64,000 nt of DNA, from IMG/VR virus record IMGVR_UViG_3300025695_001209, positions 8,762 through 72,761 of that record. One strand, written 5' to 3'. This DNA comes from a virus. Each line of letters opens with the position of its first letter. The first letter of the stretch is position 1. The translations under genes were made by a program, and so were the position numbers. This document shows, piece after piece, positions 25,331-57,275 of this stretch. Under the pieces are notes generated by a model. That model saw only the letters and a list, made by a program, of their open reading frames with translations. It had not been told where the DNA came from and did not search any database.

Positions 25331-25637
25331 AGTAATAGAAGTGTGTGTCTAAAGTGTTTTTATAATCTTGTAATGATTGTACCAATGGAAATGGAATTAT
25401 CAATACGGACCCATCTGGAATATCTTTTTCTAAACTACCGTGCTGTGGGTTGGCCATTTGTATTAACCACCCAAAGTAAGGTGTCTGATAAAACTCAAAA
25501 CTAATTTTATCTAATCTACTCACATCTGCTTTATAAACATACCTCTTATCTGTAGTTTTTGAAGGCAAAACTATATTTGGTACAACAGTTTGTTGTCCAT
25601 TCAATAAAAACTTCTGATATCTATCGTAATACCTCAT
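25320..25637 (-). CDS. Baseplate wedge protein (gp53 / LysM-like)
   Basis: RLDKISFEFYQTPYFGWLIQMANP...IPDGSVLIIP. Confidence 0.8.
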   Translation of the reverse strand: MRYYDRYQKFLLNGQQTVVPNIVLPSKTTDKRYVYKADVSRLDKISFEFYQTPYFGWLIQMANPQHGSLEKDIPDGSVLIIPFPLVQSLQDYKNTLDTHFYYYGR

Positions 25638-28600: not shown

Positions 28601-30247
28601 TTGAGTCATATTGGACGTTCTCCAAGCTAAATTCTCAATAGACAACATATATTTAGTGATATTCTCACCATCTTTAGTACCAAAGTTCGTTGGTACTCCC
28701 CCTGATTTTTGTGGGGCAATATTTAAATTATATGTATTATCCAAGACAGAGTTCGTAAATTTACGTATATTACCATCTCTTTTTTGTAGGTCTGCCATTG
28801 TATAGTATGGTGTGTCTTTTGTAAAGACACGACAATATTCCTCACCAACAAAAGCACCGTTTTCATTAACGTATCTTTTAACTCTCGAACCTTTCGTTAT
28901 TTCACGTGTCCCATCGAAAAATACTTTTGAAACTTGATTAATCGCAGTACCAACATGACTTAATCTGGCTTGACCTTGTAATCCATCGGCCGAATCAACT
29001 AACCTTTGAGTGTCGTCTAAAATTGAACCCTCAGTTAAATTAAAACCGTTTGATGACGATGAATTAAATTGAGAACTAATAGGTTGAAATCCTGGGTCAC
29101 TACCTTTTATATCTCCACCTCCACCTACTTTTTTTCCAGCTGCTTTACTACTATCAGGTGACACCCATGTGAACCCTCCTTGTATGTCAGGATTATCACT
29201 TGGTTCAACAGTATTAAGACCAAACTTAAACTGATTACCCTCGTATAATGTTGCTAACTCACCATAACCTCTAACTGCCGTCTGTACTCTATTACCGTCC
29301 ATATCAACAGGTAACTCGTTAGGTGGTGCAATAATATCATTAGGGTCTTGAGTTCGTTTACCAACATAGTAGTTACCATTAGGGGCCAGTAAGTTAAGGT
29401 CCGAAATAAAATTACCCTTATAATCAGGTCTAAATCTATTATACTCTAAAGACTTAAACATTGTGGATGTTTGACCTCGTCCTGTATTATTAAGGAATAT
29501 ATCGGAACCATTCTTTTTTTCAGGTAATAATTTACCTCCACCAAATAAATTAGATACGGCATTTACAGCTAAATTAGTGTAAACCTTTTTACCTTCGAAA
29601 TAATCACCAGGTATCCAAGAAAACGGAACATAAACACCCGTTATTCTACTTATGAAATCTAAACCTTTACCAACGATATTTGTAGGTGAAGATATTGTCC
29701 AATCAGGCTCGATTAGTTCTTGTCGACCAGTTAGTATATCTGCAGCAATAAAAGGGTCTTTTAATGCATTAAGAAAGTTTGCTCGACCCAACGTCTCTTG
29801 TCTTATTTCTTCATCGACACGATACTGAAATTCATCCTTCAATGATTTAGCACCAATTTGAATCATTGCAGAATCTTGAGTCAATGAACCATTAGTACCT
29901 TCTGGGTCATCATTTAATAGAATACTTGCACTCGTATAACTTGAAGAGACAAACTTATAATACGTTTCCCTTGTTGAAACTAATTTTTGGACGTCCTGAA
30001 CAGTATACCTGTCATCGTAACCCCCTTCAGGACCATATTGGTTTTGTAGAAATAATTTAACTTCCTCAACATCCCCAATATTCTCAACCTCATCACTGTC
30101 AGTGACAGTGTAGTTTGAAAGTATTAACTCAGACTGACCTGGATTTGTAGAAGGTGAAAAACCATCACTATTAAAAGGTGGTAGGTTTTTGACCAACAGT
30201 TTTTTTCTGAAGTCTTCTGTGGAATTAAATGATAATGGACTTGGCAT
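25637..30247 (-). CDS. Baseplate/tail-tube initiator-like protein with internal OmpA-like domain
   Basis: Tube-initiator-like segments (WFPPY...GRPEPIYTYSNTQR; PPICVLRVGDF...QPMIADVTLSF) flank LTGSAS...YNVNLSKRRVDSV. Confidence 0.7.
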   Translation of the reverse strand: MPSPLSFNSTEDFRKKLLVKNLPPFNSDGFSPSTNPGQSELILSNYTVTDSDEVENIGDVEEVKLFLQNQYGPEGGYDDRYTVQDVQKLVSTRETYYKFVSSSYTSASILLNDDPEGTNGSLTQDSAMIQIGAKSLKDEFQYRVDEEIRQETLGRANFLNALKDPFIAADILTGRQELIEPDWTISSPTNIVGKGLDFISRITGVYVPFSWIPGDYFEGKKVYTNLAVNAVSNLFGGGKLLPEKKNGSDIFLNNTGRGQTSTMFKSLEYNRFRPDYKGNFISDLNLLAPNGNYYVGKRTQDPNDIIAPPNELPVDMDGNRVQTAVRGYGELATLYEGNQFKFGLNTVEPSDNPDIQGGFTWVSPDSSKAAGKKVGGGGDIKGSDPGFQPISSQFNSSSSNGFNLTEGSILDDTQRLVDSADGLQGQARLSHVGTAINQVSKVFFDGTREITKGSRVKRYVNENGAFVGEEYCRVFTKDTPYYTMADLQKRDGNIRKFTNSVLDNTYNLNIAPQKSGGVPTNFGTKDGENITKYMLSIENLAWRTSNMTQDLAECEKGPNGGRVMWFPPYNLSVDESVSASWTSNDFLGRPEPIYTYSNTQRQGSISFKILVDHPSVLNTLVDKELANVTPDSQVTKIVDSFFAGCKTMDIYELARKYGQLSFNDIYEVVSKTNNPDVFRESFVEVPRQNPEPDNVTTETPQKPDLSQFEGTKLYFHNDKPDSRSRGVTSSVPYNTTYNNYLALESEYLTQSDSIGQKQQVQTFFDNNIKAGKTQLDSLIDKLVEVATNKYRVQIKLTGSASSPNDKSYNVNLSKRRVDSVEQQILNDSRIKKLNENGLIGIQRDFTGEETTIDGVDCSKEITDEVAKIYSIDAMACRRTTIKSIELTAPPIEEKEPTDEDIVKVDTVVDKVPVIEKGKGAPRTTDEISIREGITKKVLRKLLSECDYFEAMSEDTSFLYEGIKEKIKYFNPTFHSMTPEGLNTRLTFLQQCMRPGDTIPTIGPDGQPLENNALNTSFGSPPICVLRVGDFFHTKIAINQMSVRYDPLVLDLNPEGIGVQPMIADVTLSFYFIGGHGLKGPIDRLQNALSFNYYANTEMYDERSVVPEDAETLPSLLSILPEVPFSINDVSGVDAKDGGSTIGEITSQVLSNSGTSITGVINYKSIMNDLIVKYETYRDSVGPTLQCVAESYGEIGLRLFTKDMKYVEGDIIGNNTKIFGKSEKLVDKIQYQFSKAIDDVDNDVHPLQFAGLNKTFSNSNSFKNKDVKKYDRKLKEIINRLQSNFESEMVVDLQTLTTYELELTRIIDKMNVVNEEIDGFIQSDKTVIYDLTATTQVYPSTNYTDTLDELRGDLKIISDKLNKLYSINGEKVYTVNGNSFEILAPENSNNVYQKDLSMTIMVSDFTDEPLKRYYLTFYRYILDNSVTLIEELTKLVKENNFKNPKEWITNITNNVNNGLKDFEKARTEINKLFESYNDKVDSTSEFRDIPYTKDKVREFTFTNNPTPPNTDTEKIQKLYSGNNEGDLTKWNNKVKLQ

Positions 30248-38313: not shown

Positions 38314-39351
38314 TTAAATCAGTTTTGCCGTTGTGAATATCTGAGATTCACCAATAGATTTTTTAACGACAACAAACTTAACCAAATCATTAGTATTTAC
38401 CTGAATTTTTGTTATGTTATCACCAACATAGTCATTATTAATGTACACTGAGAAACTATCCACATTGAAAGTTTCATTTAAATGTAGGTCGGCACTATAC
38501 CTAAATGTTTCACTTAATTCTGTATTACCACTAACAAAAAGTAAATCAACAGGGAACTCATTTGGGTTTTCAGGTTGAGGATTAACCTTCACTGACTTAT
38601 TAAGTTGAGGTATTTCAAACATTGTCAATGCTCTCGACACACCTGGACTTACCTCAAACTCATCTTCATCCATTAAAAACCCTAACATAGTAAACTCGTA
38701 GTTTTGTATGTAGTATTTTCTTTTATCAATGTCCATAACTGATTCATCTGAAATGTTATTTAAAACAATAGGAATGTAATGTCCTTTAATAATTGTGTAT
38801 GCTTGTCGAGAAGAAAATTTCTGTAAAACATTTTTGTTAAACTCATTTAACCCTCTCATTCGATTAACAAATATTTTAACATTATATGTTATATCGACAG
38901 GTATTGGCTGAGGTATCTTATAAACATCTACACCTTTTCTTTGTCCGTCCCATGTCGGAACCTTGGCATAATAAAATTGTTTTCTATTAGGTATTGTGTA
39001 TTGTAAAGATGGGTTAGTACCATAAGGGACTTCAGGTTGTCTAACAGTAGTAATAAATGGGGGTTTAACGTTTTTATCTAAATCTTGGAAATTCCAAGTT
39101 TCTGTAAATTGAGACCAATTCTGTGTTGTGATAATAATATCTACAGTAGGAACGGTGTTACCGTCCATAAAAGTTTTTAAATCTTCTTTTACGAAATCTA
39201 ACATTCCTCGGTCCAAATCAGCATGACCAATACCTTTAGGTAGGTATGTTCCGTCCTTTTGAATATCATCTAAAAGTTGAATCCTCCTATCTAACCCTGT
39301 TTTTTTAGGAATTAAATCAATCGTTTTTTTTATCTTTTTTGGTAATGCCAT
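38314..39351 (-). CDS. Tail completion / sheath stabiliser (gp15-like)
   Basis: PQPIPVDITYNVKIF motif. Lies between the neck and sheath genes. Confidence 0.55.
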   Translation of the reverse strand: MALPKKIKKTIDLIPKKTGLDRRIQLLDDIQKDGTYLPKGIGHADLDRGMLDFVKEDLKTFMDGNTVPTVDIIITTQNWSQFTETWNFQDLDKNVKPPFITTVRQPEVPYGTNPSLQYTIPNRKQFYYAKVPTWDGQRKGVDVYKIPQPIPVDITYNVKIFVNRMRGLNEFNKNVLQKFSSRQAYTIIKGHYIPIVLNNISDESVMDIDKRKYYIQNYEFTMLGFLMDEDEFEVSPGVSRALTMFEIPQLNKSVKVNPQPENPNEFPVDLLFVSGNTELSETFRYSADLHLNETFNVDSFSVYINNDYVGDNITKIQVNTNDLVKFVVVKKSIGESQIFTTAKLI

Positions 39352-39866
39352 TATATTCCGTTGAATTCATCATTTGACACCGGCGACGCCACAATACTCC
39401 TGTAATATGGTTTATAACCACCATATGTATGCCTGTTATCTGAGGTGATACGACCGTCATCAGCAACGGAGTAGTATCTAACTCTATCTTCTTTTTCATA
39501 ATAACCAATATAATCACCAAACTCGATATCGACACCCATCTCATCTAAGTATGATTGGTATATACCGATTTTTAAGTTTCCTGGTTCTACTTGTCCGATT
39601 TTTGAGTTACCCATAAACGCGTTTGTCGGTGCTTCAATCTGAACATAACCTTTAAGTTCTATAGGTGCTCGATACTGAACCCCTTCGGAAACTACCTCAC
39701 CATAAACATCGTCTTTCTTAGTTCGTTGTCTATCTACACGATATAACACAAACGTGAAATTCATATCACCATGTAACCATTCTTGGCCCATGGAGATATC
39801 TAAATCAAAATCTTCTTCAGCGAAGAATTTACTTAATCTCGTTATTGGTACTTTTCTTTGACTCAT
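39351..39866 (-). CDS. Neck / head-closure protein (gp14-like)
   Basis: Start reassigned to MSQRK (39866), just after two TATTTAT motifs. LYRVD...DDVYGE...GDYI pattern. Confidence 0.6.
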   Translation of the reverse strand: MSQRKVPITRLSKFFAEEDFDLDISMGQEWLHGDMNFTFVLYRVDRQRTKKDDVYGEVVSEGVQYRAPIELKGYVQIEAPTNAFMGNSKIGQVEPGNLKIGIYQSYLDEMGVDIEFGDYIGYYEKEDRVRYYSVADDGRITSDNRHTYGGYKPYYRSIVASPVSNDEFNGI

Positions 39867-39915
39867 CAATTGATAAATATCTATAAATAGATTATATTTA
39901 AATGTATTTACATGT

Positions 39916-41670
39916 ATGAAAGAAAATAATTTGGTTTCAAACGTCCCTGAAATAAGGGCCACCCGTATTTTAGAAGAGTACGAGGGGTATAACAATTATA
40001 TACTTTTGTTAAAGAAAAAAATGCAAATTAAAAAACATTTTAAAATAACAAGGGCACAATCAGACTATGTAATCGACTTTCACGAGTTACAACCAAAAAT
40101 CGCAAGAAAATGGGTTGAGTTAGATGAGTACTTCGGAAATAAAATGAAAGAGGAAAAATTACTTCCCAAAAGACCCACTCAAATTTATGTTGAAAAAATA
40201 TTAGTCGAAAAAGATAAATCGTTCCACATATATGGGAAACTTTTTGAATCTGAAGACCTACATGATTTTTGGTTACCAAAAGCAGCAGTTATACAAAATA
40301 AAGAAAGGAAAGTCGAAATAGACTACACCAAATACTCACATAGACCACCTTTAGAACATCAAAAGCTGGCTGTTGAAAAATTAGTCGGTAACGATAAATA
40401 TATTTTGGCGGATGATATGGGTCTTGGTAAAACAACCGCAACCGTAATGGCTGCGTTGGAAACAGGTGCAAAAAAGATATTAATTATATGTCCAGCATCA
40501 TTAAAAATCAATTGGCAACGAGAGATTGAAAATTATACAGATAAGTCAATATCAATAGTTGAGGGTAAGAAATGGGAACCTGCTGACTTTATGATTATAA
40601 ATTTCGATATACTAAAAAACTTCCATAACCTTAAAAAGGTAAAGGAATCGATAATACTGAACTACGGTTTTGATGTCGTGATAGTTGATGAGGCACATTA
40701 TATACAAAACAAACAAGCCCAAAGAACAAAAATAGCCAACGATATTTGTAATAAGGTCGGTAAAGTATGGTTACTAACAGGTACACCAATGACATCAAGA
40801 CCAATTAACTACTTTAACTTATTAGATTTAGTTGACTCACCTGTGGCATATAATTGGATGGCCTACGCGATTCGTTATTGTGAGGGGTATCAATTTAATG
40901 TAGGAAATAGAAAAGTTTGGAATGTTAACGGTTCTTCTAATTTGATAGAATTAAGAGATAGAACAAAACCACACGTACTTAGACGATTAAAAGAAGATAT
41001 ATTGGACTTACCTGATAAAATATTAACACCCGTTTATTTACGACTAAAATCAAAACAATATGAAGCACTTATGGGTGAGTACTTTGATTGGTATGAAAAT
41101 TCAGAGGAATCTTCCTCATTAACCGTGCAGTTCTCAAAACTAATGAAAGTCAGACAAATCATAGCAGAAGAAAAGGTTAGAGACACCATCGAGATTGCAC
41201 AAAACATCATAGAACAAGGAAAAAAAGTTATTATTTTTACAAACTTTACAGATACATTAAATCAAATAAAATCTCATTTTGGTAAAGACGCTGTGACATT
41301 AGACGGTAAAATGTCTAAACCCGCACGACAACACTCAGTTGATGAATTTCAAACAAACGATAAGGTTAAGGTTTTCGTTGGAAATCTGAAAGCTGCTGGT
41401 GTCGGGATTACATTGACATCTGCCGAAGCAGTAATAATGAATGATTTATCATTTGTACCCTCAGACCATTCACAGGCTGAGGACAGAGCTTATAGATACG
41501 GTCAAAAGTCTAACGTATCTGTCTTTTATCCGATATTTGAAAACTCTATCGAGGGTGCAATATACGACATATTATCAAAAAAGAAAAACGTTTTTGAAAC
41601 TGTTATGGGGGATAATGAAGATAAGGGGAGTATTGTTGAAGAAATATTAAATACTATCACAAGAAGATAG
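39916..41670 (+). CDS. SNF2-family helicase/translocase
   Basis: LADDMGLGKT, CPASLKINW, DEAH, LTGTP, LRRLK, QAEDRAYRYGQ. Confidence 0.95.
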   Translation: MKENNLVSNVPEIRATRILEEYEGYNNYILLLKKKMQIKKHFKITRAQSDYVIDFHELQPKIARKWVELDEYFGNKMKEEKLLPKRPTQIYVEKILVEKDKSFHIYGKLFESEDLHDFWLPKAAVIQNKERKVEIDYTKYSHRPPLEHQKLAVEKLVGNDKYILADDMGLGKTTATVMAALETGAKKILIICPASLKINWQREIENYTDKSISIVEGKKWEPADFMIINFDILKNFHNLKKVKESIILNYGFDVVIVDEAHYIQNKQAQRTKIANDICNKVGKVWLLTGTPMTSRPINYFNLLDLVDSPVAYNWMAYAIRYCEGYQFNVGNRKVWNVNGSSNLIELRDRTKPHVLRRLKEDILDLPDKILTPVYLRLKSKQYEALMGEYFDWYENSEESSSLTVQFSKLMKVRQIIAEEKVRDTIEIAQNIIEQGKKVIIFTNFTDTLNQIKSHFGKDAVTLDGKMSKPARQHSVDEFQTNDKVKVFVGNLKAAGVGITLTSAEAVIMNDLSFVPSDHSQAEDRAYRYGQKSNVSVFYPIFENSIEGAIYDILSKKKNVFETVMGDNEDKGSIVEEILNTITRR

Positions 41671-41715
41671 TACATTTTTCTCATATGGTGTTATTTATAT
41701 AAAAAACACATAATT

Positions 41716-43251
41716 ATGAAGTTTAAAAAAAGCCAAGAACGAATTCAAGATATTGAAAAAACAATTAATGAATCAGAAAACAATCAAAAAATAAATGAAA
41801 ATGTTAAAGGAGTAAAAAGAATAACGGCAATTAAGTTACCTTATTCATACTCATCTTTAAGTCGTTTCATCGATAAAGAAACGATGAATGTTCATTACAA
41901 TCAACACTATAAAGGGTATCTTAAAAAACTCAACAAGGCGTTAGAGTCGGTTAAGGACGAAGACTTAGAATTGGAACAGATTGTAAAGGGAATATCTCGT
42001 TACAATCAAACCATCAAAAATAACGCTGGTGGGGCATATAACCACGAGTTATTTTGGCAAATGATGTCACCAAAACCACAACAACCAAATGGTCCAGTAC
42101 TTGACAAAATTAAGCGTAAATTCAAAACTTTCGCCAATTTCAAAAAAGAATTTAAGAACAAATCATTATCTAAGTTTGGTTCAGGTTGGGTATGGTTGGT
42201 TCTAACAAAGAGTGGTGATGTTAAAATTATTACGACAACCAATCAAGATAACCCGTTAATGAATACTGTAAAATTCGGTGGAATACCTTTATTAGGGTTA
42301 GACCTTTGGGAACACGCATATTATCTAAAATATAAAAATAGAAGAAATGAATATGTTGATAATTTCTTTAAGGTGATTAATTGGTCGTTCGTAAACAAAC
42401 AATTCGACACACATCAAAAAGGTAAGCTTAACGAGTCGAAAGTTGTGAAAGCACTTATTAGTGAAGGACTCTCTAAAGGATGTTCACCACAACAAGTGAA
42501 TACATATCGAATGGTTTTCAATAGAAACCCACAAGTCAAAAAGAAGTTTATGTATGCAATTATGGATATACTAAAAGAAGTTTATTCAGAATTTCATTAC
42601 GAAAAAAATCAATACGCAGATGGTCAAATGTCAGGGATTTATGATTTCGAACAACCAGGTCGTTCAGTCATAAATAAGTTGAACACAAACTACTCGGCCT
42701 TCTGTATTTTAGTGAATGACCTCAACGCAGTGTTAAAACATTATGGGCAGGACCCATTAAACTTTGTGGGTGTTAGTGACAAACAACAACTACGTGAAGT
42801 GCAAAGAATGATTAAATTGATGGTTCAGTTTAGATATAGGATTTTTAATCAAGAATCAGGGACATTCCAAAGTATCATGGCATCTTTAGATAAGACCAAT
42901 AAGTTTGGTGATGAAAGAGAAATAAAGGCCGTCATTAATATGAAAAATATTTTTAATACTAAAAAAGTATTTAAAGTTGGTGAATTAGGTGGTAAAGATG
43001 ATATGATTGGTGGTATCGATGCGACTGTTGAAATAGACGGACAAACAAAAACCATACAGGTTAAACCATTTAATAATACCGAAGAAAATGAAGATAGGAC
43101 TACGGTATTTGGTACGGGTAATGTTAAACCATATAAAACCGATTACATGTGTTTTCATAGTGATACAAAAGGAACTTTAGTGTTTAAAAATGACGACACT
43201 AAAATTGTTAATGGTAGGTATACTTTCCCTTCTGATAGTTTAGTGAATTAA
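41716..43251 (+). CDS. Fe/Mn superoxide dismutase fused to a C-terminal PD-(D/E)XK-like domain
   Basis: LPYSY, HYNQHY, GGAYNHELFW, FGSGWVWL, NQDNP, DLWEHAYY (all four metal ligands), plus about 280 extra aa with E...GID...IQVK. Confidence 0.88.
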   Translation: MKFKKSQERIQDIEKTINESENNQKINENVKGVKRITAIKLPYSYSSLSRFIDKETMNVHYNQHYKGYLKKLNKALESVKDEDLELEQIVKGISRYNQTIKNNAGGAYNHELFWQMMSPKPQQPNGPVLDKIKRKFKTFANFKKEFKNKSLSKFGSGWVWLVLTKSGDVKIITTTNQDNPLMNTVKFGGIPLLGLDLWEHAYYLKYKNRRNEYVDNFFKVINWSFVNKQFDTHQKGKLNESKVVKALISEGLSKGCSPQQVNTYRMVFNRNPQVKKKFMYAIMDILKEVYSEFHYEKNQYADGQMSGIYDFEQPGRSVINKLNTNYSAFCILVNDLNAVLKHYGQDPLNFVGVSDKQQLREVQRMIKLMVQFRYRIFNQESGTFQSIMASLDKTNKFGDEREIKAVINMKNIFNTKKVFKVGELGGKDDMIGGIDATVEIDGQTKTIQVKPFNNTEENEDRTTVFGTGNVKPYKTDYMCFHSDTKGTLVFKNDDTKIVNGRYTFPSDSLVN

Positions 43252-43294
43252 AAATAAACGCATAAAACCAGATATTTATATATAAAACGTCAAT

Positions 43295-44407
43295 ATGTCA
43301 ATTATTTTAGAACCACAAAGAACCAAATTATACACGAGAATTCGTCACTTACTTGGTGCACCGATTAGGGGTATTGAGTTAGAAGATGAAATGATGGACT
43401 CATTATTAGAATTATCTATCGAGGATTATTCTCAATACGTTAATGATTGGTTAATTGAATCTCAATGGACATCTTTATATGGTCTTAATCAAGATACACA
43501 ATCAGTTGCTAAGGCACTTATAACCCGTTCTTTAGACTGGGAAACTCAATACACATACGCATATTCTAAGATTGTGGGATTACAATCGGGTGGAGACTCT
43601 GAACTTAAAAAAGATTATTTTGACCTGAAAGCTAATCAACAAATATACGAAATACCTGCAGGTAGAGAAATCAATGAACTTCTTTGGTTTACACGTGCTG
43701 AGCTTGACGCAGCTTTTTTCGACCCATTTATGGGTGGATTTGGTGGATTTGGTGGTATCGGTTTAGGTGGTGGTGCTGGTTTCTCACAAATGGGTGGACA
43801 GGGTAATTATTTTGTATCACCAGGTTTTGACATCTTACTTAGAATGCAAGATATTAACATTAAAAGAAGGATAATTGGTGGTGAACTTACTTACAGAATA
43901 ACCGCACTTCCTGAAGGTAAAAAAGCAATACACCTATATAACGTACCAGGTGGTAAGTTTGATTTTGGTAATATGGCAAACAACAACTACAGAGTATGGT
44001 ATTGGTATTATGAAACCGAAGATAGAGAGAGTTGTTTAGATAAGCACCCTGATATCGTTCGTTTACCGTCTGATGTGAATTTAGAAAACTTAAGATGGGG
44101 TGAACTTAATTCACCTGCACAAACATGGGTTCGTAGATGGTTCACCGCATATGTTAAAGAGACCTTAGGTCGAGTTCGTGGTAAATTTAGTGGTAATTTA
44201 AAAACACCAGATTCTGAGTTACAGTTAGAATATGACTCATTATTAAGTGAATCTAAAGATGAAAAATCAAAATTAGAGGAAGAGTTAAAAATGAGATTAG
44301 AAAGACTTCGTCCTGATAAAATGATGGAAGTTAAGGCTAATCAAGCAGAAAGTCTAAACAAATCTTTACAATATAGAGCACTTCCACGTCAGATTTATGT
44401 GATTTAA
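43295..44407 (+). CDS. Neck / head-tail adaptor protein (gp13-like)
   Basis: LGAP..IEL, WVRRWFTAYVKETLGRVRGKF. Contains a Gly-rich insertion. Confidence 0.8.
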   Translation: MSIILEPQRTKLYTRIRHLLGAPIRGIELEDEMMDSLLELSIEDYSQYVNDWLIESQWTSLYGLNQDTQSVAKALITRSLDWETQYTYAYSKIVGLQSGGDSELKKDYFDLKANQQIYEIPAGREINELLWFTRAELDAAFFDPFMGGFGGFGGIGLGGGAGFSQMGGQGNYFVSPGFDILLRMQDINIKRRIIGGELTYRITALPEGKKAIHLYNVPGGKFDFGNMANNNYRVWYWYYETEDRESCLDKHPDIVRLPSDVNLENLRWGELNSPAQTWVRRWFTAYVKETLGRVRGKFSGNLKTPDSELQLEYDSLLSESKDEKSKLEEELKMRLERLRPDKMMEVKANQAESLNKSLQYRALPRQIYVI

Positions 44408-44408
44408 A

Positions 44409-44741
44409 ATGGGAATATTTAAAAGTTATCCCGTCACTAAAATTGTTGGTGGTTTAGAAGTTAAAACCTCAGATTCAATTATATTAACTGATGAGTCTTA
44501 CACTACTAATGGTGAGTCAGCAATTGTAGTTAAAAAAGTTGATAAATGTGTCATCACATTAGATGAAAAAACAACAGACCACATTACGATTAAATCAATG
44601 ACTAATGTTACTATCAAAAGTGAATCGCTTATTGATGATGAGTATAATCAAATTGAAACCGAAAGAGGTGCATCTGTCGAACTTAAATTTATTGGTAGAA
44701 CATGGTACGTTATGTCGTCCGATGGTTTAAAAAACTCTTAA
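44409..44741 (+). CDS. Hypothetical beta-rich virion protein
   Basis: 110 aa, coupled to the neck gene, ends in SVELKFIGRTWYV. Confidence 0.6.
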   Translation: MGIFKSYPVTKIVGGLEVKTSDSIILTDESYTTNGESAIVVKKVDKCVITLDEKTTDHITIKSMTNVTIKSESLIDDEYNQIETERGASVELKFIGRTWYVMSSDGLKNS

Positions 44742-47581
44742 CCAAATAATGATTTTTGGTTAGTTTCTATTTTTTTTCTAACTATTTTTTTCTTTTCTGC
44801 AATGTAAGGTTTTTCCTCGTCTCTAACATTATCCACTTCAAGACCTAACATAATGTCACCATTTTTCTTTACATAGTCAGTATCTACCTTGTCGATTGTA
44901 CCGTCAACATACATGTAATATGGGTCAATACCTACCTTTTTCCAAAACTCGACTTCGGTATCGGATAAAGTTAATACCTCCTCTAACATATCTTGGTCAC
45001 CTTCTCTACGAGGGAAACCACGAACTAACTCAGATTGTGTCTTAGTGAAAACTGGTTGGTCAGCGGGGTCCTCAATTAAAATATCAGGACGGATTTCGGG
45101 TGAAAATACAACTAATAAGGGTTCAATTCTTTTATTAAACGCCGCTAAATAACGAGGTACATTATACTCACCTAACATGTCAGGACTCTCAGTTAAGTAT
45201 TCCTCGTTTATGTGGTAACAATTTAACACCACCTCATCTTTTTTCTTTTGAACATCACCGTGTGATTTTCTCTCACCATTATTCACATAGTAGATAGTGT
45301 CACCCAACCCAATAGGTAAATTATGTTTTATTGCCAATTCCATATGTGCTTGACGAGACATAAATGAACCCGATTTAGTTCTTTTAGTTATATGTTTTTT
45401 ATAATCTTCGATACTTTGTTTAACACGGGCTTTGTTGGCAATTTTCGCTATTGGTATTTTTTTGTTAAAAATAATATCTACATACTCGTAGTAATAGTCT
45501 AAGAATTCATGACCTTTTCCATCTAATAACATACGAAGACTTTTATCTAAGAAATCTGCAACATATGTGGGTAATTTTTTAGATTTAATAGTATTACCCG
45601 TTAGTTTTACTTTTCCTTTATCTGTTAATAGTGCGTAGTTCTTACGTGCAACATTTATAGTTGCCGGCCATTGTCCATCTGTGTCTAACCCCATTTCATT
45701 CCTCATGAAGATATCGTTATATTCCGCAACATCTGCCTCTGAACCATAATACGTTTTACCTTTTTCAACTAATCCATTTAACCCAAGACCCACATAACTA
45801 TGTTGGTCCTTACCTTCAGGTACTGAAAAGTTAACACCATCCGTATCCATAACTAATGGTTTGTAATCTCTTTCCATAAACCACATAATCATTTGTCTTA
45901 AGTATTGTCGACCAGTACATGTTATTTGTTCACCCATATCCATATCTCCCCATGGGAATACGTGAGGTGCTGACAATGAACCAAAGAAGGCGTTAATAAA
46001 AATCTTAATTGGTAATTGTTTACGATTATACTGTGAGGAAAGTTTAGGGTCTGTCTTTGAATAGTCAGCAGCCAATTTCTTATATTTAATACGTGTATCA
46101 CGGAAATACTTCAACATACTCTTCATTGCCCCTGTTACATCACATTTAGGGAAGACATCATGAACTAACTGAATAGAAGGGTATAGTGAAGAGTAATCAA
46201 GTTTCAATACGTCTGTTGAGTACCCAACAGCCAATAATCTCGATAACCCACCTGTAAATGGTCGTTTCTCACCTTTCTTAGGGATTGCTAAACCATGCTT
46301 ATACGACCATGACGCCATAATCATCTTCCATAAAGTTGCGGTACCCATAGTTGAAAGTCTCTCATACGTTGTTGGTACTAACTTAGCCAAAAGAAAGTTA
46401 GCTTGATTAAATTCCTCATCAACAACCATGGTCTCCCATATATCATCATAAAGATACCTTTCCACAATGTACTTACCGTTTACCTTTTCATAATGTCCAG
46501 GAAATCTCTCCATAAGATTTTCAGTTCCCTTTGAACCAACCTCTTTAAACCCACCTGTTTTTGGGTTGAAGTAATAGTCTTTATTGTCAAAATAAGTTTT
46601 ACCAATCTTATCACCCTGAACATAAACACGATTTTCCTTTTCTGCACCAATAAATTGTGTGATATACTTCAGTCCCCAACTTTTGATATCGGAATTAATC
46701 GCTTGTGCCCTACGTACTGCATGTGCAATATCGACAACATTATATCCCCACATCTGCATCTGAACAAAATCCTCCATTTCATTTGCAAGTTTAAGGATAC
46801 TATCTTTTTGTCTAAACTTCACTTCAGGGTTTAGGGTCCTGATTATCTTTTTAGGGTCTAACCCTAATATCTCAGCCCTACGGATTAAAAATGGAAAATC
46901 AAAAAATGCTGAGTTATATCCACCAATCAACGTTGGTTTTAACTGGTTAACTATTTTAAAGAACTCGATAATAAGTTGTCTCTCTTCTTCATCGTTGTTT
47001 GCTGCAATAACCTTTTCAAAACCTTTATTGTCTTTCATACCAATAAGGAAGATACTACTTTCTTCGGGTGATAAACCAGTCGTTTCAATATCGAATACGA
47101 ATCTATGTACTTCGTCATACTCGTCAAAACCTTTAAACAGTCTCTTTCCCTTTTGACATAGATATTGTTCAACAGGTGACATTATCATTATATGTTCTGA
47201 ATTACCTCTTTCCCATGGGTCTAACCCACCTCCCTTAAAAAAGTTAACTAGGTTTGAGTAAGACTTTGTAGTCTTAACCATATACTTTAAACCTTGTTCC
47301 ATTCTCTCATCACCATGGGTATCTAATTTCTCAATTAGTATTCCGTGTGTTGACATTGCTTGTTTTTGGGCAGCTTTAGACCCACCGTAAAACTTTTTAC
47401 CGTGAAGGTCACCAACCCATGCAAATGGAATAAATGTGTCTTGTTTGATTTGTTTGCCCTGAATTGGGTCTTGAATTACCTTAAATACTTTTCCTGAACG
47501 ATAGTCGTATTCTAACGCTACAATATACTTTTCAGGGTCCTCTCCTAATAGGAATTGTTCAATTACTTCTTGTGATACCAT
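44738..47581 (-). CDS. polB: Family B DNA polymerase
   Basis: Exo motifs FDIETT, GYNSAFFD, YLYDD. Polymerase motifs DYSSLYPS, KIFINAFFG, DTDG, KNYA. Confidence 0.95.
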   Translation of the reverse strand: MVSQEVIEQFLLGEDPEKYIVALEYDYRSGKVFKVIQDPIQGKQIKQDTFIPFAWVGDLHGKKFYGGSKAAQKQAMSTHGILIEKLDTHGDERMEQGLKYMVKTTKSYSNLVNFFKGGGLDPWERGNSEHIMIMSPVEQYLCQKGKRLFKGFDEYDEVHRFVFDIETTGLSPEESSIFLIGMKDNKGFEKVIAANNDEEERQLIIEFFKIVNQLKPTLIGGYNSAFFDFPFLIRRAEILGLDPKKIIRTLNPEVKFRQKDSILKLANEMEDFVQMQMWGYNVVDIAHAVRRAQAINSDIKSWGLKYITQFIGAEKENRVYVQGDKIGKTYFDNKDYYFNPKTGGFKEVGSKGTENLMERFPGHYEKVNGKYIVERYLYDDIWETMVVDEEFNQANFLLAKLVPTTYERLSTMGTATLWKMIMASWSYKHGLAIPKKGEKRPFTGGLSRLLAVGYSTDVLKLDYSSLYPSIQLVHDVFPKCDVTGAMKSMLKYFRDTRIKYKKLAADYSKTDPKLSSQYNRKQLPIKIFINAFFGSLSAPHVFPWGDMDMGEQITCTGRQYLRQMIMWFMERDYKPLVMDTDGVNFSVPEGKDQHSYVGLGLNGLVEKGKTYYGSEADVAEYNDIFMRNEMGLDTDGQWPATINVARKNYALLTDKGKVKLTGNTIKSKKLPTYVADFLDKSLRMLLDGKGHEFLDYYYEYVDIIFNKKIPIAKIANKARVKQSIEDYKKHITKRTKSGSFMSRQAHMELAIKHNLPIGLGDTIYYVNNGERKSHGDVQKKKDEVVLNCYHINEEYLTESPDMLGEYNVPRYLAAFNKRIEPLLVVFSPEIRPDILIEDPADQPVFTKTQSELVRGFPRREGDQDMLEEVLTLSDTEVEFWKKVGIDPYYMYVDGTIDKVDTDYVKKNGDIMLGLEVDNVRDEEKPYIAEKKKIVRKKIETNQKSLFG

Positions 47582-50497: not shown

Positions 50498-51205
50498 ATG
50501 AGTATGATTAAGTCCGATATCTTTAGAAAAAAAAGTGCAGCTGAAGAGAAAGCACTTAAAATGGGATGTAAAGGTACCCACAAACACGATGGTGGGTTCA
50601 TGCCTTGTAATTCACATTCCGAATGGGAAAAAATAAGTTCAGTAAGTGAAAAAGAAGAAATTGACGAGTTAGTTGATTATGACGGGACTATGAATAACTC
50701 AAAAATCCCGATATTAGACCCTAATGTTACCCCAAAGAAAACCACAGACCAAACAGTTGCTGCTTCACGTACAAAACAAGACCCATATGCTTTAGGGTTT
50801 AGAAGGTATATTGGTGAAGAGGATATGTCTTCGGCATTTGGATGGGAAGAAACTGAAGATATGGGTTTCGATGAGACTATAGAATATTTAGAGAAACAAT
50901 TAGGTGTAGACAATGCTGAGGAAAGGGCCGAGGAAATGGGTAAGGACGATAAGTTAGAAAAGAAAAAAACACCAGGTTCTTTCACAAGAATGAGACTTCA
51001 AGAAAAGGAAAAAATGTTCACGAAAGAACAAGTAATGAAAATGAAAGAAGATTTACTTGTCGATAAAAACTCAGATAACGGAGTACAATCCACAAATAAG
51101 GAGATTTCTAAAATCATACTTAGAAATATTAAAGCACTTAAGAAATTATCCAAAAAAGAAGGTATCAGTACTCAACAACTTATAACTCTATTAAAAAATG
51201 AATAA
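50498..51205 (+). CDS. Hypothetical protein with N-terminal Cys/His micro-domain (DUF3721-like)
   Basis: AEEKALKMGCKGTHKHDGGFMPCNSH. Confidence 0.65.
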   Translation: MSMIKSDIFRKKSAAEEKALKMGCKGTHKHDGGFMPCNSHSEWEKISSVSEKEEIDELVDYDGTMNNSKIPILDPNVTPKKTTDQTVAASRTKQDPYALGFRRYIGEEDMSSAFGWEETEDMGFDETIEYLEKQLGVDNAEERAEEMGKDDKLEKKKTPGSFTRMRLQEKEKMFTKEQVMKMKEDLLVDKNSDNGVQSTNKEISKIILRNIKALKKLSKKEGISTQQLITLLKNE

Positions 51206-52935: not shown

Positions 52936-52990
52936 CCAACCCCTTTTCTTATTCTTTTTTTTGTGTTATACTTTTATCAAAAGTGAAAGT

Positions 52991-54205
52991 ATGTCAAAAA
53001 TTAAAGTATTAGTATTACCTTCTGACCGTACAGGTGTAGGTAAATTTCGTTCAGTAGAACCCCATATATTCTTACAACAATCAAACCCTGAAGATTTTCA
53101 TGTGGACATTGATTATGAGCCAAGGATTAACGATTTAAACTATTGGAAACAATATGATATGGTATGTTTCCATAGGTCAATTGGTCGTGACCCTAGACAA
53201 TCCGTAGAGATTGTTAAGATGTTAAATAAATTAGGTGTTGTAACGGTCATGGATTTAGATGACTATTGGTTACCAACAAAGGACCACCCAGCACATAATA
53301 TAGTTCTTAAAAATGAAATACATCTTAGAATTATTGACAACTTAAAAGTTGCTCAATATGTTACCACAACGACTTCTTTATTCGCAACAGAGATTAAAAA
53401 ATATAATAAAAATGTTTTTATTCTACCAAACGCGATTAACCCAAAAGAACCTCAATTTAATGCTGAAACCAAACCATCTGATAAAGTTAGATTTGGTTGG
53501 TTAGGTGGTTCATCACACTTAGAAGATTTAAAGTTACTAAATGGTAGTTTTTCAAGATTGAAAGATTTAAAAGACCAATATAGTGTACATCTTTGTGGTT
53601 TCGATACGAGAGGTACTGTAACTGAAATTAATCCTAAGACTAATGAACAAAAACAACGTCCAATAAAACCACATGAAACGGTATGGGCAGAGTATGAAAA
53701 GATTTTCACTAACAACTATAACTTAGTAACACCTGAACATAAGGAATTCTTATTAAAGTATAGTCAGGAACCTTTTACGTTAGATGAAGAACCTTTCTAC
53801 AATAGAGTATGGACCGAACCTGTCACATCATATGCTAAAAACTACGCAAATTTCGATGTGTCTTTAGCACCACTTAAAAATCACATATTTAATAGGGCCA
53901 AATCACAATTAAAAGTTATCGAGGCAGGTTTTTATAAAAAAGCCATTATCGCTTCAGATATCGGACCCTATGGAATTGATTTGACACATTCACTTAAAAA
54001 TGGTAACTTTACTGACGGTAATGCTTTATTAGTGAAAGAAAGTAGAAACCATAGTGATTGGTCTAAATTCATGAAAAAATTAATTACTAACCCATCATGG
54101 GTTGAGGATTTAGGTGAGAGACTTTATGAGACGGTCTCTAAGACTTATGACTTAAATATTGTAACAGCAACAAGAGCAGAAATTTATAAAGAAATAACAC
54201 GATGA
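52991..54205 (+). CDS. Glycosyltransferase (GT-B, GT4-like)
   Basis: Start reassigned to MSKIK. DLDDYW, LPNAI, GWLGGSSH, APL...FNRAKSQLKVIEAG, IASDIGPY. Confidence 0.85.
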   Translation: MSKIKVLVLPSDRTGVGKFRSVEPHIFLQQSNPEDFHVDIDYEPRINDLNYWKQYDMVCFHRSIGRDPRQSVEIVKMLNKLGVVTVMDLDDYWLPTKDHPAHNIVLKNEIHLRIIDNLKVAQYVTTTTSLFATEIKKYNKNVFILPNAINPKEPQFNAETKPSDKVRFGWLGGSSHLEDLKLLNGSFSRLKDLKDQYSVHLCGFDTRGTVTEINPKTNEQKQRPIKPHETVWAEYEKIFTNNYNLVTPEHKEFLLKYSQEPFTLDEEPFYNRVWTEPVTSYAKNYANFDVSLAPLKNHIFNRAKSQLKVIEAGFYKKAIIASDIGPYGIDLTHSLKNGNFTDGNALLVKESRNHSDWSKFMKKLITNPSWVEDLGERLYETVSKTYDLNIVTATRAEIYKEITR

Positions 54206-55500: not shown

Positions 55501-55887
55501 ATGGAAACAGTAAGTCCAACATTACCCGAAGGTATTAAAAATTACCTTATTGATATCGATGGTACAATTACCGATGATGTCCCAAATGAAGAACCAGAAA
55601 GAATGGTAAGTTGTTTACCCTATGAAGGTTCAATTGATATGATAAATGAGTGGTACGATAATGGTCATATTATCACCTTCTTCACTTCTCGCTCGGAAGA
55701 ACATAGAGAAGTCACAGAAGAGTGGTTCAAAAAACACGGATATAAGTATCATAACTTATTAATGAACAAACCTCGTGGAGGAAATTACCATTGGATTGAT
55801 AACCATATTGTAAGGGCTACTCGATATAACGGTAAATGGACACCACTAACAGATAAAGAAACAACAATACAAGTATTTGACGATTAA
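55501..55887 (+). CDS. Small HAD-family phosphatase
   Basis: Start reassigned to METVSP. IDIDGTI, FTSR, MNKP, IDN. Confidence 0.8.
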   Translation: METVSPTLPEGIKNYLIDIDGTITDDVPNEEPERMVSCLPYEGSIDMINEWYDNGHIITFFTSRSEEHREVTEEWFKKHGYKYHNLLMNKPRGGNYHWIDNHIVRATRYNGKWTPLTDKETTIQVFDD

Positions 55888-57275
55888 TGATTACAATAGG
55901 ATATAGTACAAAAAAGATAGACCCTAAATTTAGAGAATACATTGAGGAATCATGTGGGTTAAGAGGTGTTGAAGTGATACCTTTTGAGAACCCTGGTACT
56001 CATTCACTTACCGAAGCATATAATATCATTCTTGAGAAATCAACGAATGATATTGTTGTGCTTTGTCATGATGACATCTATTTCGAGAAAAAAAATTGGG
56101 GTAACAAAGTGTTAAAACATTTTAAAAGAAATCCCGATTATGGTATTATCGGCGCTGCGGGTACTAAATACATGCCAAAATCAGGTAGGTGGTGGGAAAT
56201 ACCCTCAGAGATGTATGGTGTTGTTAATCATGAGCACGAAGGTAAAAAATGGACGTCTAAGTACAGTGAACCAAAAGGTAATCGATTAGACCAAACGGTA
56301 CTCGTTGATGGTTTATTTATGGCGGTTAACAAACCCACTTTAAAGACTCGATTCGATGAGGACGTTAAAGGTTTTCACTTCTATGAGGTGGATTTTTGCT
56401 TTAGAAACTTTTTAGAGGGTGTGATGATTGGTGTGTTTTACGATATTAGAATTACACATAAGTCAGTTGGTATGACTAATGACCAGTGGGAATTGAATAG
56501 ACAACAATTCGTGAACACACACAAAGACAATTTACCCGTAATACTTCCTACGACTTACAATAAGAAGACGGTTAAGAAGAATGAACCATTAGTTACTTTA
56601 GCAATGCCAATCTATAACTATGCTAAGATGTTAAATCCATGTCTTAACTCAGTTTTTAATCAGGATTACACTAATTTCGAAGTGGTAATAGTTAATGATG
56701 GGTCTGATGACGAATACTGTTTACTAAAACTAAAAACATTAGAGGGTCATGAATCTATTAAAGTAATACATAAAGAAAATACTGGTGTATCTGATACACG
56801 TAACATTGCGGTAAAAGAAGGTAAGGGTGAATATATACTACCATTAGACGCCGATGATATGATTTTACCTGGTTACCTCAAAACGGGTGTTAACATTATT
56901 AGAAACAATCCAAAAATTAGCCCTGTATATTGTGATACAGTACATGCCGGTGAGATGAAAGGATTAGAAAAAAGACCTGAATGGTCACAAGAGAGACTAT
57001 TACAAGGTCCATTCATAGTTAATAGTTCAATGTACTCACGTGAAGCTTATGAATCCATTGAAGGGTACAATACTGAAATGAAAGGATGGGTTGATTATGA
57101 TTTATGGGTTCAAATGATGGACGCAGGATATGAAGGTAAGAGAATACCCAAAGGTTTATTTGTTTATTTTCATCACGAAAGTGAAGGTAAGGGTTCTGTC
57201 TCAACATCTGCAAGACAGAATATGAGTGAATTACACAAAACGGTTTTAGATAGACATAAACTTAGAAATACCTAA
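55887..57275 (+). CDS. Two-domain GT-A glycosyltransferase (GT2-like + GT2)
   Basis: N-domain LCHDD, VDGLF, FHFYEVD. C-domain PIYN, VNDGSDD, RN, LDADD, DYDLW. Confidence 0.9.
   Translation: MITIGYSTKKIDPKFREYIEESCGLRGVEVIPFENPGTHSLTEAYNIILEKSTNDIVVLCHDDIYFEKKNWGNKVLKHFKRNPDYGIIGAAGTKYMPKSGRWWEIPSEMYGVVNHEHEGKKWTSKYSEPKGNRLDQTVLVDGLFMAVNKPTLKTRFDEDVKGFHFYEVDFCFRNFLEGVMIGVFYDIRITHKSVGMTNDQWELNRQQFVNTHKDNLPVILPTTYNKKTVKKNEPLVTLAMPIYNYAKMLNPCLNSVFNQDYTNFEVVIVNDGSDDEYCLLKLKTLEGHESIKVIHKENTGVSDTRNIAVKEGKGEYILPLDADDMILPGYLKTGVNIIRNNPKISPVYCDTVHAGEMKGLEKRPEWSQERLLQGPFIVNSSMYSREAYESIEGYNTEMKGWVDYDLWVQMMDAGYEGKRIPKGLFVYFHHESEGKGSVSTSARQNMSELHKTVLDRHKLRNT

Follow-up and report, generated by a model that had tools for sequence, protein, structure and literature searches.

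The 64,000-nucleotide stretch analyzed here (the window) covers positions 8,762 to 72,761 of the IMG/VR virus record IMGVR_UViG_3300025695_001209, and its positions 41716 to 43251 hold one open reading frame (ORF) whose product is called simply "superoxide dismutase" in database entries, leaving the larger half of the protein without annotation. An earlier reading of the window (the original prediction) had described the product as a superoxide dismutase (SOD) fused to a restriction-endonuclease-like domain, and as a precursor packaged in the capsid and cut by the prohead protease. The gene and its parts, in coordinates of the window, were as follows.

41692 to 41699, + strand: TATTTATA promoter-like motif, 16 nt before the ATG
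41716 to 43251, + strand: whole ORF, 511 aa, comprising leader, SOD, linker, helical domain and PD-(D/E)XK-fold domain
41716 to 41829, + strand: leader, residues 1-38, charged and lacking hydrophobic stretches; INE at residues 17-19 and 26-28
41830 to 42399, + strand: Fe/Mn SOD domain, residues 39-228 (Pfam PF00081 and PF02777)
42400 to 42480, + strand: interdomain linker, residues 229-255 (27 aa), with LNE at 42427-42435 and ISE at 42457-42465
42481 to 42894, + strand: helical domain, residues 256-393 (138 aa), with the motif GRSxxNxLNTNY and with S317, N320 and N337
42895 to 43248, + strand: predicted PD-(D/E)XK-fold domain, residues 394-511 (118 aa)
42919-42921 (E402), 43000-43002 (D429), 43018-43020 (D435) and 43057-43065 (Q448-V-K450): candidate active-site residues within the PD-(D/E)XK-fold domain

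Sod_Fe_N matched residues 39-118 (E 7e-21, 74.9 bits against a gathering cut-off of 27) and Sod_Fe_C matched residues 125-228 (E 1.1e-38, 131.8 bits against 20.9), so that the intact SOD first placed at 41836-42393 was recovered at about nt 41830-42399; no Pfam match was found beyond residue 228. The first 237 residues matched 155 solved SOD chains at E <= 1e-20, the best being 3tjt (1.2e-56, over residues 40-226). H60 (41893-41895), H110 (42043-42045), D196 (42301-42303) and H200 (42313-42315) aligned with the solved SODs at positions that we take to be the metal ligands, and all four were invariant in the 129 distinct fused homologues that were collected, which were 38-92% identical to the window protein. 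The Mn-type GG and NQD signatures were present as expected, as G105 G106 and N176 Q177 D178. By the Mn-type criteria (G-G, F and Q-D) attributed to Parker and Blake, positions G105, G106, F113, Q177 and D178 were kept in 127-129 of the 129 homologues (G105 and G106 in 128-129, Q177 in 128, D178 in 127). A SodA or SodB equivalog was ruled out by NCBIfam scores far below the cut-offs (best model SOD [Mn], 170.1 bits against an equivalog cut-off of 363; SOD [Fe], 156.2 against 348). The domain is a diverged and complete Fe/Mn SOD, putatively of the Mn type by its signature residues.

The structure of the C-terminal part, residues 236-511, was predicted with AlphaFold2 from 56 diverse family members. 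The model had a mean predicted local distance difference test score (pLDDT) of 92.5 and a predicted template modeling score (pTM) of 0.86, and was poor only in its first 20 residues, which form the linker (pLDDT 50-58). What had been described as a nuclease-like region of about 280 aa did end in a nuclease fold, but was found to consist of two domains, the first without a recognized fold. In a Foldseek search of the PDB, the ten best rows were all PD-(D/E)XK-type nucleases, including I-Ssp6803I (2ost, the best, E 4e-3), SPARDA and NhoI, with Hjc at rank 11. VIA-align, which searched 48,161 representative chains, returned Hjc (2wcw, Z 7.9, root-mean-square deviation (rmsd) 3.5 A over 102 residues; 1gef, Z 6.0), I-Ssp6803I (Z 7.3), Hje (Z 7.0), HhaI and NhoI (both 6.7), and DpnI and tRNA-splicing endonucleases (Z 5-6). 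Most of its 15 rows at Z >= 5 were PD-(D/E)XK-type nucleases or their kin, aligned over model residues ~159-276. As the matches were consistent in family, the fold assignment was supported despite middling Z scores, and the structure prediction and both searches agreed on a nuclease fold for the last ~118 residues.

The candidate active site was conserved in keeping with this fold. E402, D429, D435, Q448 and K450 were invariant in 129/129 fused homologues, and among the 56 distant members D200 and K215 (model numbering) were invariant while E167 and Q213 were kept in at least 90%. Read from the secondary structure of the model, not from a residue-level superposition, E402 lay on a long helix (147-177), D435 at the start of a strand (201-205) and Q448-x-K450 on the strand 208-216. 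In the E...GID...IQVK pattern of the original prediction, GID (433-435) and IQVK (447-450) were in place, and the glutamate at nt 42913 was the variable E400, the invariant one being E402. The models therefore support a PD-(D/E)XK nuclease fold for the last 118 residues, with an invariant E...D...QxK as its candidate active site.

The closer assignment to Mrr-like nucleases did not hold. The D...QxK variant, which we take to typify Mrr, was encountered (D435, Q448-V-K450), and yet no member matched Mrr_cat; one of the 56 matched Mrr_cat_2 (E 0.0045), one matched RE_EcoO109I (E 0.0045), and no Pfam family appeared in more than two. Neighboring clusters in the Atlas partly carried RE_TaqI, RE_MjaI or Mrr_cat (the last in 10% of one cluster), which is a lead only. 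Searched with the C-terminal part, PDB sequences gave 0 phmmer matches and a best profile match of E 0.11, and Pfam, PHROGs and NCBIfam gave nothing usable; the Pfam Hjc family (PF01870) did not match the window protein. With no sequence match to a named family and consistent fold matches, a restriction-endonuclease-like fold was supported and Mrr-like membership was not. The helical domain (residues 256-393) reached a pLDDT of 97.7 when modeled alone and held the most conserved sequence motif of the family (S317, N320, N337). No fold was recognized for it by VIA-align (best Z 4.3) or Foldseek (best E 0.62), although a weak or missing structural match does not prove a new fold.

The helical and nuclease-like domains together (the module) matched 386 proteins at E <= 1e-3 in a 90%-clustered collection and 171 representatives at the same threshold in a 50%-clustered library. 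Among the 120 module matches listed, most were proteins of 510-521 aa with both SOD Pfam domains, and the others were mainly "hypothetical proteins" of ~294 aa. The same fusion recurred in more than 100 metagenomic sequences, and BFVD also contained it, as "superoxide dismutase [uncultured Caudovirales phage]", together with a 1113-aa marine phage protein ending in the module. A tblastn search with the whole protein returned 32 records, 0 of them covering 80%, and the module was touched by only two megaphage records (23% identity). Family members of 576-1109 aa and a 383-aa paralogue carried the module behind other, unannotated N-terminal regions; in the SOD-less 576-1109-aa members, the N-terminal parts gave no Pfam domain, and the junction showed no clear pattern of sites. 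Reads assembled from three independent sequencing runs crossed the junction between the domains and revealed no stop codon there. Contigs of runs X2 and X3 bridged 41500-42618 with zero differences, and a contig of run X5 bridged 42038-42762 with 7 substitutions and 0 indels, so that a stop or frameshift between the domains was not seen; the run contigs were short, none spanned the whole stretch, and those of X1-X3 each had a gap somewhere in 42460-42850. These sequences indicated that the fusion is real, conserved and unannotated.

The gene occupied a fixed slot. The same gene order was found in 18/18 fusion loci and in 80/80 loci retrieved through a SOD-less homologue: the sheath, p345 and p171 genes on the minus strand; the SNF2 helicase, the slot X, the gp13-like p370 and p110 on the plus strand; and PolB (family B DNA polymerase) on the minus strand. 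The SNF2 helicase lay directly upstream in every one of these loci. In the 80 loci, a sample biased by its SOD-less query, slot X held SOD-less proteins of 277-309 aa in 46, SOD fusions of 510-519 aa in 31 and genes cut by a contig end in 3. The constant neighbors in the window were as follows.

39916 to 41670, + strand: SNF2-family helicase, constant upstream neighbor (phrog_62, E 1.5e-109)
43295 to 44407, + strand: gp13-like neck/adaptor protein, 370 aa, constant downstream neighbor, with its own TATTTATA at 43273-43280
44409 to 44741, + strand: fast-evolving 110-aa protein with no assigned function, closing the + strand block

The neck gene was indeed the next gene, as the original prediction had stated, and its resemblance to T4 gp13 in the PDB was weak (E 0.03), though collinear at both ends; the 370-aa protein also matched the PHROG "head-tail adaptor Ad2" (E 1.2e-10 across 62 residues). 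It was the most conserved gene of the block (92-97% identity among close relatives, 61-72% among distant ones) and had a glycine-rich stretch (GGFGGFGGIGLGGGAGF) outside the T4 gp13 alignment. Upstream of the helicase, the minus-strand gene at 39351-39995 probably does not begin at its listed TTG (39995): the 171-aa protein of the relatives starts at an ATG at 39866, a co-oriented TATTTATA lies just upstream of that ATG at 39882-39889, and the later start removes the overlap with the helicase start at 39916.

The comparison of fused and SOD-less proteins placed the leader with the module. A profile of the fused leader (the first ~40 residues) matched the N-termini of 85/104 distinct SOD-less proteins at E <= 10, with the 15 best matches at 3.6e-8 to 4.2e-5, and a 309-aa SOD-less form kept the end piece of the leader, which abuts the LPY of the SOD in fused proteins. 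These sequences indicated that the leader goes with the module rather than with the SOD. A tree of the module was built from 62 distinct, locus-verified complete ORFs (40 fused and 22 SOD-less), leaving out 119/181 rows known only as database proteins, some of which are truncated gene calls. It needed 2 state changes, one at a SOD-less clade of 20 (100% support) and one at a 309-aa SOD-less pair nested in the fused clade (98% support). A weaker tree of all 102 representatives needed 8 changes and was set aside, as many of its database rows may be truncated gene calls. The 62-row tree is unrooted, so gain versus loss is not proven by it, and the nested 309-aa pair reads as a loss because of the leftover leader piece. 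The SOD is optional and has changed state at least twice, probably by loss. The fusion of the original prediction was upheld; its SOD, however, does not form the core of this gene but an optional insert in a leader plus nuclease-like protein. The slot between helicase and neck gene is always filled by leader plus nuclease-like module, a finding that is new here.

Few genes of the block diverged as much as the module, which had 43-46% identity against 64-70% for the helicase and p370 and 45-61% for PolB; among closer relatives, it was 68% identical against 92% for p370. A relative with a 99%-complete record of 297,164 bases (G001), whose orthologous gene was 88% identical, also carried a second, diverged paralogue of the module (profile E 1.3e-26). 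This 383-aa protein (287530-288681, - strand, locus L121) had a different N-terminal region of ~150 aa, an intact D...QxK and its own TATTTATA, and was located in a right-end cluster of small, function-unassigned genes.

Four [LIV]xE sites flank the SOD in the window protein (INE 17-19, INE 26-28, LNE 238-240 and ISE 248-250), and [LIV]xE sites, which had been singled out as brackets, proved to be positionally conserved across the 129 homologues. The tripeptide is common, so that only its position carries meaning, and its fixed positions indicated conservation for which chance can be excluded. Six alignment columns had [LIV]xE in at least 60% of the fused homologues, including one before the SOD (94/129) and two in the linker, E240 ([LIV]xE in 122/129, E in 129/129) and E250 (125/129 and 127/129). 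Upstream of the SOD, [LIV]xE occurred <=20 residues before the LPY in 123/129; the distance was 8 residues in 87 homologues and 12-13 in 31, as it is in the window protein. A leader of 24-51 aa was present in 123/129; four others lacked a leader, starting 8 aa before the LPY at a Met just after the site, and two had no LPY/LPF anchor. E240 and E250 lay in the stretch with a pLDDT of 50-58 and were mostly followed by S or G. Several distant SOD-less members open with a short run of just 6-10 residues whose end is [LI]NE.

A separate N-terminal motif was observed in G001, where five otherwise unrelated proteins (ORFs 206549-206800, 231438-232598, 233306-234373, 286254-286643 and 290279-290563; L033, L035 and L038) had in common ~22 residues that end in [LIV]xE and follow the form (K/R)(I/L)(T/S)E(S/E)(D/E)L..(I/M)(V/I).(R/K)(V/I)(L/I).E. 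An upstream TATTTATA was present in three of these ORFs. The motif has the look of a shared leader and is possibly the lineage’s real capsid-targeting or secretion tag; no copy of it was found in the window.

The TATTTATA motif noted earlier was confirmed before the gene and again before the gene that follows. Its 17 copies in the window were not above chance (12.9 +/- 3.8 expected), and most lay 4-36 nt upstream of a gene in the same direction. In G001, 49/91 copies (both strands) were co-oriented and <=60 nt upstream of a gene (330 ORFs); the corresponding counts were 4-10 for five further AT-rich 8-mers, and 19-37 for three 8-mers overlapping or mirroring the motif. It preceded the orthologue and 48 other ORFs there, typically 12-19 nt before the start. 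When 47 of these 49 ORFs were scanned against PHROGs (two across locus borders were left out), 10 had a named category and 37 had no named function; 8 of the 10 were virion or lysis genes, namely endolysin, tail fiber, baseplate wedge, tube, sheath, neck adaptor, head protease and portal. Window genes lacking the motif were PolB, the helicase, the large subunit of ribonucleotide reductase (RNR), UvsX, SSB and the exonuclease. No sigma-70-type promoter or + strand terminator was found adjoining the gene. As the motif stands mainly before virion and lysis genes, late expression of the gene was supported, with TATTTATA as a putative late-type signal that has exceptions.

The source record of the window is a 72,761-base IMG/VR contig whose completeness was judged to be 21%, which implies a genome of ~300 kb or larger. 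The window encodes a 1057-aa tail sheath, baseplate proteins, a class I RNR, DnaB, a UvsX-like recombinase, SSB, an exonuclease and PolB, along with giant ORFs without matches. A megablast search of 10 kb against isolated phages gave 0 matches, and PolB was only 24-25% identical to its nearest isolates, so no cultured relative with a proteome is at hand. Peptidase_S77, the family of the T4 gp21-type prohead protease, was found in two relatives, G001 (at 213433-214152, E 2.4e-25; PHROG "head maturation protease", 8.9e-44) and G002 (E 2.8e-24), in agreement with the prohead protease that the original prediction required of the lineage. G001 also encodes a portal (PHROG) and a capsid protein matching T4 gp23 (E 5.6e-24); the mature T4 capsid chain in the PDB table has 456 aa against 521 aa at full length. 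The S77 protease and the gp23-type capsid protein indicated that the lineage builds its heads in the T4 way. The T4 prohead protease cuts after (L/I)-x-E, and the enzyme of this lineage may differ in specificity. The gene belongs to an uncultured lineage of roughly 300-kb T4-type myophages, and 20 sequencing runs from 14 studies, most of them labeled marine, contain part of the stretch.

Other genes of the window were of separate interest. The PolB gene (44738-47581, - strand) encodes a family B polymerase <=25% identical to those of isolates, the nearest being Salinibacter and Nostoc/Anabaena phages, and has a TATAAT-like box upstream in place of TATTTATA. Three giant ORFs on the - strand (2313-7472, 18857-25330 and 25637-30247; 1719, 2157 and 1536 aa) had no PHROG match at E <= 1e-5, and the 1536-aa one, with TATTTATA 16 nt upstream, had only sub-threshold OmpA and CheD Pfam matches. 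A 235-aa protein (50498-51205, + strand) had an N-terminal DUF3721 match (E 3.3e-10) and TATTTATA 7 nt upstream. Two glycosyltransferase-like genes, 52961-54205 (phrog_7162, 4e-45) and 55887-57275 (phrog_9549, 6.5e-12), lie in a + strand block of genes of unassigned function; they may be relevant to modification of DNA or of the surface, and through it to what a phage nuclease would leave uncut.

Our findings are consistent with a late precursor that enters the prohead and is cleaved there at [LIV]xE sites, with delivery of an SOD and a nuclease-like protein, and this is the explanation that we tentatively favor while placing it somewhat short of an even chance. Packaging and cleavage are what we infer, with equal reserve, from the sequence pattern and the T4-type head genes of the lineage. 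The gene would be transcribed from the late-type promoter, and the leader would take the precursor into the prohead, where a T4-type protease would cut after the conserved [LIV]-x-E, once 8-13 residues before the SOD and twice in the linker (E240 and E250). Freed inside the head, the SOD and the nuclease-like protein would exit together with the DNA when the phage infects. The working effector would be the nuclease-like module, which would cut or bind DNA as infection begins, with the SOD as an add-on removing superoxide around the incoming or packaged genome. This explanation was favored because it accounts for more features at once than the others do: the persistence of the leader whether or not an SOD is present, glutamates that never vary in a flexible linker, a late-type promoter, adjacency to the neck gene, fast evolution and modular paralogues. 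What keeps it below even odds is the high frequency of the motif, together with a leader that other proteins do not share.

Several observations weigh against packaging. The [LIV]xE pattern occurs at a rate of 0.021 per position, or 10.8 per protein, and the remaining conserved columns fall at E199 in the SOD active site (D-x-W-E-H; 117/129) and at E288 (91/129) and E361 (105/129) inside the helical domain. Conservation within folded domains means that conservation alone does not mark a cut site. In the SOD-less forms, [LIV]xE was present at the linker-site column in only 62/104, some having Q or T-E. The T4 targeting sequence is common to several internal proteins, and the leader profile matched only the orthologue among 330 G001 ORFs (7e-12; next 0.07). 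The late reading of TATTTATA held for mainly virion and lysis genes, and the motif also preceded DnaB and an HNH endonuclease in G001 and nrdB in the window. No protease gene was found in the window’s own record, which is 21% complete, and no RNA runs were listed among those containing the stretch. On the structural side, Foldseek gave 0 PDB rows at E <= 1e-3, and the fold scores were middling by the tool’s own note (top Z 7.9). Finally, the helicase as a constant neighbor points to a DNA-processing role in the cell, and so does the lack of Endonuclease_7, RuvC, VRR_NUC, Hjc and RusA in G001 at E <= 1, a blank that is weak for Endonuclease_7, for which none of the control genomes gave a match at the cut-off.

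The last two points belong to the strongest competing explanation, which we regard as a realistic though again less than even prospect: a late enzyme that stays unprocessed in the cytoplasm, either as a structure-specific or debranching endonuclease, comparable to T4 endonuclease VII or archaeal Hjc, that works with the SNF2 helicase on phage DNA during replication or recombination and ahead of packaging, or as a degrader of host DNA. The SOD would then be a fused helper protecting this DNA work or the radical-based RNR, whose class I genes are present in the window, and the leader and linker would serve oligomerization or partner binding. The best structural matches were Holliday-junction resolvases (Hjc 2wcw Z 7.9, Hje 7.0 and the phage 15-6 resolvase 5.3), the helicase was directly upstream in 98/98 loci, and the window holds a UvsX-like recombinase, SSB, an exonuclease, DnaB and PolB. 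With no classical resolvase family in the 99%-complete G001, the role of resolvase is vacant, and T4 endonuclease VII is also made late. A cytoplasmic enzyme would leave unexplained, however, the conserved, charged leader of 20-50 aa that is kept with or without the SOD, and the invariant glutamates in a flexible linker. The divergence of the module (43-46%, against 64-70% for helicase and neck gene) would be unusual for a core DNA-processing enzyme, the same genome (G001) carries a second paralogue with another N-terminal domain, and the extra 138-aa helical domain is unlike small dimeric resolvases.

Alternatively, the PD-(D/E)XK-fold module would bind DNA without cutting it, serving as an anchor by which optional enzymes, the SOD in this protein and other N-terminal domains in relatives, are held on phage DNA inside the capsid or the cell. 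Such a role would fit the presence of the module behind other N-terminal regions in the 576-1109-aa proteins and the 383-aa paralogue, the Q that replaces the usual acidic residue of the (D/E)xK triad in 129/129, and the fact that the matches include non-catalytic PD-(D/E)XK folds, structural subunits of tRNA-splicing endonuclease among them. We consider it improbable because the active site is invariant: E402, D435, K450 and D429 are kept family-wide down to ~22% identity, as in a working metal-dependent site, and D...QxK variants are known in active enzymes of the Mrr literature. An artefact (assembly chimera, missed stop or frameshift, or two genes) is refuted as far as the sequence data allow and has a negligible chance of being correct, with nothing found in its favor and with a single open frame kept by 129 distinct fused sequences at 38-92% identity, 18 and 31 fusion loci of separate metagenomes, and junction-crossing contigs of X2, X3 and X5 without indels.

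If the packaging explanation is extended, the leader and module would form a head-delivered effector platform of a widespread marine lineage of T4-type jumbo phages, with optional enzymes spliced between them and released by the protease, and with the helical domain as a new DNA-recognition fold; we consider this extension speculative and rather doubtful. Were it true, the SOD would be the first antioxidant enzyme reported as phage-capsid cargo within the part of the literature that was searched, protecting the genome either after delivery or while still in the particle, and full-text searches of that part returned neither a phage SOD-nuclease fusion nor a capsid-packaged phage SOD. Although SODs of phages tend to be classed with the auxiliary metabolic genes and pursued no further, here the SOD rides on a conserved, uncharacterized nuclease-like protein, equipped with a leader and with joints resembling protease sites, of a lineage that is common in marine metagenomes. 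Packaging would extend the T4 internal-protein principle to a modular polyprotein and would provide a concrete example of a phage that brings oxidative-stress protection along with its DNA. If the enzyme is cytoplasmic, the module could be the resolvase or debranching nuclease that these phages otherwise seem to lack. In either case, a family of 171 clusters at 50% identity, including a confidently modeled domain without a fold match, merits a name.

The predicted fold of residues 394-511 resembles that of Hjc/Hje, I-Ssp6803I, HhaI, NhoI and DpnI (Z 5.6-7.9, rmsd 2.9-3.5 A over 90-102 residues), and like other PD-(D/E)XK enzymes the module carries its E on helix 1, its D where strand 2 begins and xK on strand 3. 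Unlike the enzymes named, it has no Pfam profile match, has Q for the second acidic residue and is preceded by a 138-aa helical domain. Among phages, EST35_0261 of the Pseudomonas jumbo phage PA5oct is likewise a homologue of the Fe/Mn-SODs (27% identity, E 7e-14), and its GenBank note reads "ESI-MS/MS" (electrospray ionization tandem mass spectrometry). In the PA5oct paper, this label denotes proteins detected in virion preparations, and 7/93 detected proteins are called "virion-unrelated enzymes" (PMC7318152). By analogy, the PA5oct protein is a precedent that favors a phage SOD in particles. EST35_0261 differs from the window protein in its length of 182 aa, in having no leader or nuclease module and in belonging to an unrelated jumbo phage. 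Virion-packaged Cu,Zn-SODs of giant eukaryotic viruses (Megavirus and PBCV-1) blunt the oxidative defense of the host early in infection; the SOD described here differs in family (Fe/Mn versus Cu,Zn), in its virus and host, and in its fusion partner.

Polyvalent proteins of phages and conjugative elements, which Iyer, Burroughs, Anand, de Souza and Aravind are said to have proposed in 2017 to travel with the DNA into a new host, offer a second comparison. Like them, the protein is a multi-domain phage product that strings together unrelated enzyme domains, nucleases included. Polyvalent proteins are usually very large and carry methylases, peptidases and ADP-ribosyltransferases (ARTs), whereas two enzymatic modules and candidate protease sites are found here, and we know of no SOD among them. 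In T4, the internal proteins IPI-III and Alt are capsid-targeted cargo trimmed by the gp21 prohead protease, and Alt is an enzyme. Similar to that system, the lineage described here has a gp23-like capsid protein and an S77 protease, and the protein has an N-terminal leader that ends in [LI]-x-E (as a pattern only), a late-type promoter and fast evolution. Its leader is 20-50 aa long compared with ~10 in T4 and has no other carriers in G001, and its several domains with internal candidate sites make it more like a polyprotein. With Alt it would have in common that the cargo is an enzyme.

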